Positions 886 to 3,369 of a stretch of DNA of 13,846 nucleotides are shown piece by piece. The DNA is from a virus (taxonomy: Duplodnaviria > Heunggongvirae > Uroviricota > Caudoviricetes): positions 1 to 13,846 of the IMG/VR virus record IMGVR_UViG_2713896897_000012. One strand, 5' to 3'. The position numbers and the translations under genes were made by a program. How positions within the stretch are numbered: position 1 is the first letter of the stretch; each line of letters opens with the position of its first letter. The notes below the pieces were generated by a model that was not told where the DNA came from, did not search any database, and worked only from the letters and a program-made list of their open reading frames with translations.

Positions 886-915
886 CATAAAATTCCGGGT
901 GCGCACCGTTTTTTA
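886..915. terminator. Weak palindrome with flanking A/T runs immediately after the last tail-fibre stop; possible intrinsic terminator
   Basis: Perfect 10-nt palindrome GGTGCGCACC at 898-907, with a T6 run at 909-914 on the plus strand and AAAATT at 889-894. The stem is short (3-4 bp once a loop is allowed), so this is a weak call. Confidence 0.25.
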
Positions 916-2247
916 TGTTGTGTAATCGTGATCGTCATAATTACTTGTTGATACGGGTCCGTATACACCGTTAAGTGCGTTTGTATATAGCTGCTTCCCG
1001 TATTCTTCTGGATCTGATGCCATGGTGGAAAATGTCAAATTCACGCCAATACCCTCAATGTCGCAAGTGATATTGATCGGACCGTCTCTATATGCATACC
1101 TTGGATTCCTGATATTTGTGATTTTTTCAATGCCGCCCACAGGCACGCGCTGTGCATGAGCAAGCCAACCTATGGCTTCAGTACCCCCACCGAAAAAATA
1201 CTGAAAAGTCACGGGGGAGCTGAATCGCCACATCCCTGCCAATACGGCTTTGTTGTATAGGCTTACCCCGCTAGCGGTGATCCCCAACGTGCAGGCGTTG
1301 ATATAGCTACCTCTAACAATCTCGCCAGTATTTACAAACACTGATCTTGACGGGGTGAATATCGGTTTAGCAACAGTAAACGCCCCATCACCGTTGATGA
1401 TGGGATATACCTGAACATTCACGTTCCCGTTGGCGTCAGGTCCGATATAATTCACGGTTCTTACCGGGTCATAATTCCCAGCGTGCCAGATTTCATATTC
1501 TGTATTATCTGACAGATATTTCAGGTCGTGGACTGTCTTGCCACCGAGCAATAATTTTGCGTCACTAATCAGGTTAACAGTTTTATCAGCGGAGCCAGAC
1601 AATACGCCAACCTTTGCCCCGTTATACGTAAGATAAATTGTCGGTGCGCTGATTTTTTTACCAGCCGCGACCGTGACGTCATCATTAAATTGAGTGGGTA
1701 GGTTGAAGTTGTTTTTTTCTTTAAACGTGTTTTCTTTGTCGCGATAGGCAATATCGCCGTCAATGCCAATATTTTTCCGCGCTTGTTTTTGTGCATTAGC
1801 TCCCCGTTCTGCTATCTCAGAAAGAAGCTTGTCGATTCTCAAATACCCGTCGAAAATATCCTCATTGGAATACATGAGTTGCGCCCACCTGGTGTTATCT
1901 TCTGGCGTGGCGGTGTTGTTATCAACCAGCGAATAATAAATACCGCTATTGAACCGCACCAGTGCGGATTTTTGATACGGGTATGGATTGCCGCCGTTCA
2001 TTGCCTTAGTGATAAATTCCGGCGCACCAGACGATTGATACTCAGATATTGCACGAGTGATAATATAAAACAACCAGTTCATTTTCTGGCGCTCTATATT
2101 TTTCGCGTTCATGTCCGATAATTGATCGCGCTCGTAATCGTACCCGTATCCCGTCATCATAGAAACGTCGCCGGAGCTTTGAATTGGGTCGGGAATTTCG
2201 GAGCGATCGCCTAAGAAGGCGAAGGGGGTTTTTATGAATCTTTCCAT
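913..2247 (-). CDS. Tail fibre / receptor-binding protein, paralog 2 (distal copy)
   Basis: 444-aa ORF. The N-terminal ~120 aa are clearly homologous to the N-terminus of the upstream ORF 2257..3369 (shared motifs GD..EIP, GYG.DYE.D, AK.IER.K.NWL, YQ..G.P..I.K..NGG.PYPY, VR.N..IYYSL.D.NT, N..W), while the C-termini are unrelated. Last gene of the operon, 9-nt gap to the preceding gene. Confidence 0.75.
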   Translation of the reverse strand: MERFIKTPFAFLGDRSEIPDPIQSSGDVSMMTGYGYDYERDQLSDMNAKNIERQKMNWLFYIITRAISEYQSSGAPEFITKAMNGGNPYPYQKSALVRFNSGIYYSLVDNNTATPEDNTRWAQLMYSNEDIFDGYLRIDKLLSEIAERGANAQKQARKNIGIDGDIAYRDKENTFKEKNNFNLPTQFNDDVTVAAGKKISAPTIYLTYNGAKVGVLSGSADKTVNLISDAKLLLGGKTVHDLKYLSDNTEYEIWHAGNYDPVRTVNYIGPDANGNVNVQVYPIINGDGAFTVAKPIFTPSRSVFVNTGEIVRGSYINACTLGITASGVSLYNKAVLAGMWRFSSPVTFQYFFGGGTEAIGWLAHAQRVPVGGIEKITNIRNPRYAYRDGPINITCDIEGIGVNLTFSTMASDPEEYGKQLYTNALNGVYGPVSTSNYDDHDYTT

Positions 2248-2256
2248 TTCATAGCC

Positions 2257-3369
2257 TTAAATATTACCAAGAACAGCTTCTTGCATTGGAATAGTTCCAA
2301 TTGCCCATATAGTGTTATTCAGTGTGATGTGGTAGCGATACAGTATAAAAACATCATTAATAATTTTTTTACTGGCTTCGCGCACAATCAGAAAAGAACC
2401 AGTTCTTGACGTTGACAAATAACTATTAGACAAACAAGTGACCACCCATGCAACCTCGTCGTCTTTCCCTTTATCCGCCAGAGGATTATTTGTTGATTCT
2501 TTACTGATTGAATATGAAGAGCCAGCGGTAAATGCAAATGTTTTCCAGTCAATTACGGTAGCAATGCTATCAGCTGCGGAAACCGTGAAACGACTACCTG
2601 CTGGTGCCCACTCTGGGATTGTTAACCGAGCTTCCCACGTATTGTCGCTGTCATGTGCAATACCCATAGCAGCGGCGCTTCCCAGCGTGATTACGCCTGT
2701 GTCGTCCGGTTTATATATATTTCCGTTTGATGATATTTCCACGCTGCCGCTGCCGTTGGTCCCTGGCTCGCCTGCGGGTATTCCGAGGCTCAGCATTTGT
2801 TCTGGTGCCTCGCCTGTAATCACCGCTGTAGCAGGCGCACCCGGCTCCAGTGTTGTCTCCGTACCAATAGACAATGAGTTTGGCGTTGCTGGCGGCGGGT
2901 TTGATTTCGTATACGGCTGCTCGCCGTTAATATCCAGACTGCCCGTAATTGTTAAATCGCCGTTTATAGTGCCACCGCCCACGCTCAAATATTCAGAGGG
3001 GTCCAGTAGGCTCCACGAATTAGTATCAGGCTTGTCTGTGTTTGCGTCTTTTAATGAGTAGTAAATTTTATTGTTATATCGCACCATTGCGGCGGCGGCG
3101 TAGGGGTAATCAATCCCGCCGTTGTCTTCTTTTGAAATATAATCAGGGACACCCTGTTCCTGATATTTTTTAATCTCGGACGTAACCAGGCATAACAGCC
3201 AGTTTAATTTAGCGCGTTCGATTGTTTTCGCGCCCGTGTCATTGTCGAGGTCTTTCTCATAATCGGGGCCGTAACCCTCACTGAAACTAATTTCGCCAGT
3301 GTCCTGTTTGGTTTGCGGGATTTGTTCTTTGTCACCGGAGGCTGCAAATGGGGAAGCGATACGTGTCAT
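2257..3369 (-). CDS. Tail fibre / receptor-binding protein, paralog 1 (proximal copy)
   Basis: 370-aa ORF; N-terminus MTRIASPFAASGDKEQIPQ...GYGPDYEKD...AKTIERAKLNWLL is conserved with paralog 2; the middle part is rich in Gly/Ser/Thr/Pro/Ala as is typical of fibre shafts. Start ATG 3367-3369 overlaps the stop of the upstream gene (ATGA). Low-GC region. Confidence 0.75.
   Translation of the reverse strand: MTRIASPFAASGDKEQIPQTKQDTGEISFSEGYGPDYEKDLDNDTGAKTIERAKLNWLLCLVTSEIKKYQEQGVPDYISKEDNGGIDYPYAAAAMVRYNNKIYYSLKDANTDKPDTNSWSLLDPSEYLSVGGGTINGDLTITGSLDINGEQPYTKSNPPPATPNSLSIGTETTLEPGAPATAVITGEAPEQMLSLGIPAGEPGTNGSGSVEISSNGNIYKPDDTGVITLGSAAAMGIAHDSDNTWEARLTIPEWAPAGSRFTVSAADSIATVIDWKTFAFTAGSSYSISKESTNNPLADKGKDDEVAWVVTCLSNSYLSTSRTGSFLIVREASKKIINDVFILYRYHITLNNTIWAIGTIPMQEAVLGNI

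Follow-up and report, generated by a model that had tools for sequence, protein, structure and literature searches.

A tandem pair of putative short tail fibres sharing one baseplate anchor in a myovirus-type prophage, one of them with a candidate fused chaperone module

The stretch of viral DNA analysed here, referred to as the window, comprises 13,846 nucleotides (positions 1 to 13,846 of the IMG/VR record IMGVR_UViG_2713896897_000012) and carries two adjacent open reading frames (ORFs) on its minus strand. ORF1 (2257..3369, 370 amino acids) lies upstream and ORF2 (913..2247, 444 amino acids), a mosaic protein, lies downstream with a gap of 9 nucleotides between them. The genes probably specify two short tail fibres, each built as a homotrimer, of a temperate myovirus that resembles Pbunavirus and BcepB1A. 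According to this explanation the two fibres share one type of N-terminal anchor and the loops of the baseplate wedge on which it docks, each has a tip of its own, and ORF2 ends in a module acting in cis. While the pair itself is an ordinary, known kind of arrangement, the fusion of a module from chaperones of the tail fibre assembly (Tfa) type is a modest new twist.

An earlier note, made from the letters of this DNA, had placed the pair at 913-3369 on a single strand, which is exact, and had described a homologous N-terminal part of about 120 amino acids followed by unrelated distal domains. This is borne out by pairwise alignment. Residues 4-122 of ORF1 and 5-124 of ORF2 align in BLASTP with 48% identity and 67% positives (E = 2e-35); all other local alignments between the two proteins have E >= 0.3, and the sequences beyond the anchors are unrelated. 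The DNA of the two anchor regions is only 53% identical and its longest exact run is 8 nucleotides, and the duplication is therefore regarded as old and not as a recent copy.

The anchor is formed by residues 1-125 in both proteins (2995..3369 in ORF1 and 1873..2247 in ORF2, both minus). In ORF1 it was assigned by phmmer and by a family profile as similar to gp47 of phage Pa193, and in ORF2 as its paralogue by the identity to the ORF1 anchor and by a match to phrog_26622 (E 2.8e-39). If ORF1 alone was compared to PDB sequences with phmmer, residues 7-119 of gp47 in entry 9b45 were matched (E 2.8e-10); ORF2 alone gave no match there. A profile of the anchor family including both paralogues had Pa193 gp47 as its sole match in the PDB (residues 7-126, E 1e-20). 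The first 120 or so residues of both proteins are also matched by PHROG tail-fibre families (26622/4900/19618), and the ORF2 anchor is 42-44% identical to the N-termini of BcepB1A gp05 and ZF40 gp67. In tblastn the domain was found at the fibre N-terminus in Pbunavirus, Wifcevirus, Serratia MTx-like phages, BcepB1A, ZF40 and others. Neither fibre has a significant family in Pfam or NCBIfam.

The homology to Pa193 supports the assumption that the N-terminal part attaches to the baseplate, as docking on the wedge has been solved in that phage. In the cryo-electron microscopy structure the first ~130 residues of gp47 form “bead I”, whose loops 38-52 bind the loop 80-113 of the wedge protein gp46 (PMC11456595). 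The interface is 3:1, with a single gp46 loop inserted into the gp47 trimer, and the baseplate model has one docking loop per wedge, six in total (PMC11456595). In the window the gene directly upstream of ORF1 (3366..4048, minus) encodes the homologue of this wedge protein (DUF2612 / Phage_Wedge1; E 7e-23 to Pa193 gp46), and its stop codon overlaps the start codon of ORF1 (ATGA). It is recognized in the form of two Pfam half-matches, split near 3797. In the intact orthologue of the Escherichia coli STEC384 prophage (WP_235399310), the counterparts of Trp84, Phe86 and Phe93 in the gp46 attachment loop are W90, F92 and F99.

E. coli SC492 (NZ_LR778150.1) further has, in its type I-E CRISPR array, a spacer (1502-1533 of the locus) directed at the wedge gene; it matches the gene in 32 of 32 positions (window 3879-3913, plus strand) next to an ATG immediately 5' of the protospacer. 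ATG is an interference-proficient protospacer adjacent motif of type I-E systems, and together with the complete match this means that the prophage family has been targeted by E. coli CRISPR immunity.

The same two genes follow the wedge gene in the same order in prophages of E. coli STEC384, Superficieibacter electus and Salmonella, and both ORFs are intact in the window and in every relative examined. Between orthologues the anchors share 70-98% identity, with 73-78% if the Superficieibacter copies are compared, as against 47-50% between paralogues. In a neighbour-joining tree the ORF1-type and the ORF2-type anchors form two sister clades, each with Escherichia, Salmonella and Superficieibacter. 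As each clade holds all three genera, we conclude that one duplication took place in an ancestor of the lineage and that both copies were kept. The suggestion of a stacked, recently replaced fibre, one of two outcomes that the earlier note had derived from the pair, is contradicted by the intactness of both genes, by the two orthologous clades and by the low identity of the anchor DNA.

Comparable multiplications are found outside this lineage. Burkholderia phage BCSR129 has three consecutive genes with this anchor (positions 5356-10235 of the locus; 545, 537 and 526 amino acids), all annotated just as hypothetical proteins, and this array arose by a lineage-specific duplication. Pairs of anchor-bearing genes from independent duplications also occur in several IMG/VR contigs. 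A single copy is present in BcepB1A, ZF40 and Bartonella prophages. Judged from these genes, phages of this group tend time and again to multiply their fibres on a single type of anchor. One must keep in mind that genome contigs were scanned with a single degenerate peptide pattern, which gave only 5 loci, and the prevalence of such pairs is therefore under-sampled.

Downstream of the anchors the two fibres differ in every part. In ORF1 a short shaft (residues 126-205; 2755..2994, minus) was delimited by alignment and by matches to phrog_32311 and phrog_6614 at residues 143-208. It contains the motif IGTxxTLEPGAPATAxITGEAPEQxLxLGIPxG, of which relatives have one or two copies. The shaft is followed by a distal β-rich knob (residues 206-370; 2260..2754, minus), for which AlphaFold2 (AF2) gives a predicted local distance difference test score (pLDDT) of 73-93 over approximately residues 262-365. 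The knob is rare and lineage-specific: among 1.84 billion proteins just 7 representative clusters match it.

The shaft module of ORF2 (residues 130-285; 1393..1860, minus) matches phrog_5075 and is common to fibres with other anchors, namely with P2 gpH-like (PF12571) or other N-termini. It is 38% identical to the fibre of phage vB_EcoM-569R10 (E 8e-24). Next to it lies a hypervariable tip of about 80 residues (residues 286-365; 1153..1392, minus; pLDDT 78-88), the presumed receptor-binding part. This tip is nearly unalignable between close relatives, with a nucleotide identity of 34-43%.

If the window is compared to the STEC384 prophage, the nucleotide identity is approximately 85-99%, except for two sharply bounded islands at 913-1440 and 2257-2790 in which it falls to 34-64%. 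These islands correspond to the 3' ~530 nucleotides of each fibre gene, and the second one coincides with the ORF1 knob, which is 46-64% identical to its STEC384 counterpart in DNA compared to ~90-97% in the flanks. A divergence confined to the 3' ends is the usual signature of receptor-binding tips, and both distal parts behave like determinants of host range.

The distal domains travel independently, as each of them was found on other N-termini. The knob of ORF1 occurs on another N-terminus in protein P0105, and in a further Salmonella myovirus the tip of ORF2, together with the terminal module, is joined to an N-terminus of another kind. Conversely, a Salmonella sister prophage keeps the anchor and the shaft of ORF2 and carries a Gp53-like_C tip. 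A further candidate, P0013 from Citrobacter portucalensis, was considered as an ORF2 tip on a new anchor and dropped as evidence because it sits in a deleted prophage remnant (3793-7239), in which an integrase and a Kiwa defence pair (KwaA/KwaB) are found beside a truncated baseplate. P0013 is a chimeric ORF which keeps the ORF2-type shaft, the tip and the Tfa-N-like module. As regards base composition, the GC content is 0.41-0.44 over 1501-2500, i.e. in ORF2 and the 3' end of ORF1, compared to about 0.50-0.58 in the upstream tail genes and 0.50-0.56 over the remaining tail module; this drop is consistent with a horizontal import of fibre modules.

The last part of ORF2 to be considered (residues 366-433; 949..1152, minus) is conserved within the family, reaches a pLDDT of 89-94 and matches phrog_1141 and phrog_1795. 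By homology it corresponds to the module by which Tfa-type chaperones bind the fibre and which stands at their N-terminus. The module is 44% identical (E 2e-14) to a 129-amino-acid protein encoded downstream of the vB_EcoM-569R10 fibre in a P2-like tail cluster, and homologous to a 115-amino-acid protein which follows the gp17-like fibre of Ghunavirus Kompost-2. A database search with an alignment of the module returned dozens of such small proteins. In one of them, P0061, the N-terminal half is 56% identical to the ORF2 module and the C-terminal half is the Pfam domain Caudo_TAP (E 1.7e-10); in P0101 the C-terminal half is Phage_tail_APC (E 6e-17). The C-terminal half of the 129-amino-acid protein is in turn homologous to a Caudo_TAP-type protein of the Salmonella sister prophage. 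Chaperones of the Tfa type bind the tip of the fibre by a variable N-terminal domain and trimerise by a conserved, helical C-terminal one, and the Tfa of phage Mu remains on the virion (PMC9608196).

The trimerising half was looked for in several ways. A tblastn search with C-terminal halves of Tfa proteins gave no match in the window or in any relative with this type of fibre, with three further loci covered, and C-terminal fragments of ORF2 showed neither Caudo_TAP (PF02413) nor Phage_tail_APC in Pfam even at E <= 10. Four Tfa-type proteins used as tblastn queries for a separate chaperone ORF matched solely inside the 3' end of ORF2, after which a spacer of 210 nucleotides and the gene of a DUF7424 lipoprotein follow. 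A C-terminal chaperone of the Peptidase S74 type is likewise not indicated in either fibre: Pfam and NCBIfam gave no match, and no autocleavage motif was identified. The homology to the N-terminal module, taken together with the absence of the trimerising half, leads us to the conclusion that ORF2 carries the fibre-binding module of a chaperone in cis. The Salmonella sister prophage provides a natural control which favours this reading, as its fibre with the Gp53-like_C tip is followed by a separate Caudo_TAP gene.

The terminal module of ORF2 most likely represents a built-in folding aid or a cap, as far as its homology can tell. Searches of the literature for a described fibre-Tfa fusion found none. 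The idea that no chaperone is encoded next to the fibres was thus right with respect to a separate ORF and has to be modified for the last ~70 residues of ORF2, which are homologous to a Tfa N-terminal module. Equally, the expectation of self-folding fibres is roughly right for ORF2, for a different reason, the fused module. The opposite case, that ORF2 is itself a chaperone and not a structural protein, is ruled out by its complete anchor and fibre shaft.

From these results the following course of events can be proposed. One old duplication in an ancestor of this lineage of enterobacterial prophages gave rise to the two anchors, both of which were retained, and the distal module of each fibre diversifies or is exchanged independently of the other, as the comparisons with relatives show. 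Fibre 1 has the rare knob, and fibre 2 has the widely shared shaft, the hypervariable tip and the conserved terminal module. Transcription of the two genes presumably proceeds together with that of the baseplate genes, and their translation is presumably coupled. Each fibre would form a trimer, in the case of ORF2 probably with the help of its own terminal module as a folding aid or cap. Such a role would account for the lack of a separate Tfa gene downstream. By analogy to Pa193 each anchor would clamp on the DUF2612-type wedge protein, at its attachment loop with the aromatic residues. The two fibres would most likely compete for six sites, and particles with mixed specificities would be the result. 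The presence of two receptor specificities on one particle, which had also been predicted, is plausible.

A more far-reaching version combines two of these aspects: the ORF2 module is a Tfa N-terminal domain captured in cis that remains in the mature fibre and forms part of its receptor-binding tip, and the two fibres, or three elsewhere, share the six loops stochastically. We put this forward tentatively and regard it as rather unlikely in its entirety. If it were true, the captured domain would represent an evolutionary intermediate between trans-acting Tfa proteins and C-terminal intramolecular chaperones, and each burst would release virions of mixed specificity, a bet-hedging device without DNA inversion.

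An inversion switch of the Mu/P1 type had been dismissed before, and this still holds. Both genes lie on one strand, and within positions 1-5300 there is no inverted repeat longer than 30 nucleotides or of better than chance quality, just short low-quality ones. No invertase or recombinase is encoded in that part of the prophage which the window covers.

Several observations weigh against the favoured explanation. Of the two hydrophobic gp47 contacts named for Pa193, Ile41 and Leu43, by our reading ORF1 keeps the position of Leu43 only, and a leucine of ORF2 is one position off. The AF2 monomer models (mean pLDDT 54.7 and 59.2 for the two fibres) reproduce the anchors poorly, with a pLDDT of 30-50. 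Structure searches link the terminal module of ORF2 to no solved Tfa: nothing significant was matched, and a profile of the Tfa-N-like module gave no credible match against PDB or Pfam. Six docking loops for two types of fibres pose a problem of stoichiometry. The frameshift in the wedge gene upstream of the docking loop implies that this copy may yield no fibre-bearing particle.

Of the rival explanations, the one given most weight is that the tail module in the window is non-functional or a domesticated, tailocin-like remnant, and that neither fibre now serves a phage. Compared to the intact STEC384 orthologue of 227 amino acids, the wedge gene of the window has a deletion of 1 base pair near 3797 (codon ~84) and is split into ORFs of 122 and 107 amino acids, with the break just before the residues that align with the fibre-attachment loop of gp46. 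The deposited draft assembly of Escherichia albertii GCA_001514595.1 shows this split as well. Either this is a sequencing error, as may be the case with one-base indels in draft assemblies, or the prophage is no longer able to attach its fibres. Every other tail gene of the window is an intact long ORF, and in the 90%-identical prophage of STEC384 the wedge gene is uninterrupted and the head-tail module complete. We consider a defective element to be possible, though doubtful; it would in any case concern the state of this copy and not the nature of the gene pair.

Another arrangement to be weighed is a branched or stacked one, in which one paralogue, probably ORF1 with its coupling to the wedge gene, docks on the baseplate and the other one docks on that fibre. 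Such docking has precedents in DT57C, where LtfB sits on LtfA, and in KP32-like phages, where the second tailspike sits on the first. The single docking loop per wedge in the Pa193 model, compared to two anchor-bearing fibres here and three in BCSR129, would fit this idea, as would the sequences of the attachment loops, which are specific to each paralogue and conserved inside each clade. A conserved motif in the ORF1 knob (IDWxxFxF) may also be counted here, as by our own reading it superficially resembles the wedge loop (TWGFxxxxxxF). On the other hand, both anchors are equally related to the single-copy anchors of BcepB1A, ZF40 and the Bartonella prophages, which must bind the baseplate. 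The 3:1 interface of Pa193 takes one loop per trimer, and a trimeric partner would present three. No T4 gp10-like or XD-type branching adaptor, as known from the CBA120, G7C and KP32 systems, nor any other known domain of this kind was detected with Pfam and PHROG, although sequence tests can miss remote folds. We regard branching as improbable. Far less probable still is that one of the genes is a displaced, functionless fibre that decays after the replacement of a cassette, since the lower GC content over 1501-2500, which suggests imported DNA, and the clear exchange of fibre modules in this lineage are met by two ORFs intact throughout, by orthologous pairs across three genera whose anchors are closer between orthologues than between paralogues, and by distal parts that both diverge like genes under host-range selection.

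The surroundings of the pair can be summarized as follows. All genes of the window lie on the minus strand and belong to a myovirus-type prophage, of which they make up the module for tail and baseplate. According to Pfam and PHROG it includes a DUF3383-type sheath, tape measure, hub, spike, sheath initiator, Baseplate_J and the DUF2612 wedge. The Baseplate_J-like wedge subunit (4045..5241, minus; PF04865 and phrog_6) precedes the DUF2612 wedge gene. ORF2 is 100% identical to a protein of the E. albertii assembly mentioned above, whose contig has the gene order of the window, with host genes after the lipoprotein gene, and the prophage is accordingly taken as one of E. albertii. The prophage of E. 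coli STEC384 and STEC379 is ~90% identical across the whole window and carries the same fibre pair. A megablast search of window positions 700-5300 against 50,697 phage records gave no nucleotide-level match. The ~90%-identical prophages are located at different chromosomal sites, by uspF/ompN in STEC384 and by a gene for a chorismate-binding enzyme (pabB-like) in E. albertii.

The DUF7424 lipoprotein gene (1-702, minus; Pfam E 4.8e-37; phrog_3832), 210 nucleotides downstream of the fibre genes past an AT-rich spacer, is the last gene of the prophage. Its product has a signal peptide with an LTGC lipobox, and host genes follow directly after it in both E. albertii and E. coli. This position suggests a moron, possibly a lipoprotein for receptor masking or superinfection exclusion.

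Among known systems the closest resemblance is to Pbunavirus (Pa193 gp47, PDB 9b45; E217). The N-terminal ~125 amino acids are homologous, the fibre gene follows a homologous wedge gene (gp45 in E217), and the STEC384 orthologue of the wedge protein retains the aromatic residues of the attachment loop. These phages have one fibre of 962 amino acids and a length of ~500 Å, whereas two short fibres of 370 and 444 amino acids are found here, in a temperate enterobacterial prophage of a BcepB1A/ZF40-like size class.

A match to the anchor is also seen at the fibre N-terminus of the wifceviruses (BASEL Bas98-101), related myoviruses of E. coli that stand close to Pbunavirus. They carry two sets of fibres, one conserved and one modular and variable, in a relationship which the authors call unclear (PMC11990801). 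In contrast to the pair in the window, tblastn finds just one anchor copy per Wifcevirus genome, and in ManiWeber, the single phage given as an example, the numbers of the two fibres (Gp32 and Gp114) lie far from each other. Wifcevirus tips are T4 gp37-like and T-shaped gp12-like/T5-like and include a cleavable intramolecular chaperone; nothing of this kind was detected here. The pair offers a compact and genetically simple case of the question raised by the wifceviruses, i.e. how two different fibres relate to a simple R-pyocin-like baseplate with only six loops. Here this question narrows to a single type of anchor, a single wedge loop whose homologue has been solved, and two fibres that are both short. 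The Burkholderia phages BCSR129 and Bm1 are similar in that three consecutive fibre genes, each with the same anchor, stand right after the wedge gene; BCSR129 differs by its independent triplication, its longer fibres (526-545 amino acids) and its host.

With respect to chaperones, residues 366-433 of ORF2 resemble the N-terminal module of small proteins encoded downstream of fibre genes (Caudo_TAP; Mu gpU, Pam3 gp25), whereas ORF2 is without the C-terminal Caudo_TAP or Phage_tail_APC module and has no separate gene. The concept of a fibre polypeptide that carries its own folding aid at the C-terminus is shared with the chaperones of the S74 type, of T5 pb1 and of the K1F endosialidase, although the ORF2 module has no sequence match to the S74 family. 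The fusion suggests that a trans-acting chaperone can become built-in, which would be of relevance for engineering fibres and tailocins without co-expression of a chaperone. The bounds of the variable tips (approximately residues 206-370 in ORF1 and 286-365 in ORF2) could be used in the same context as swap points for the engineering of host range.

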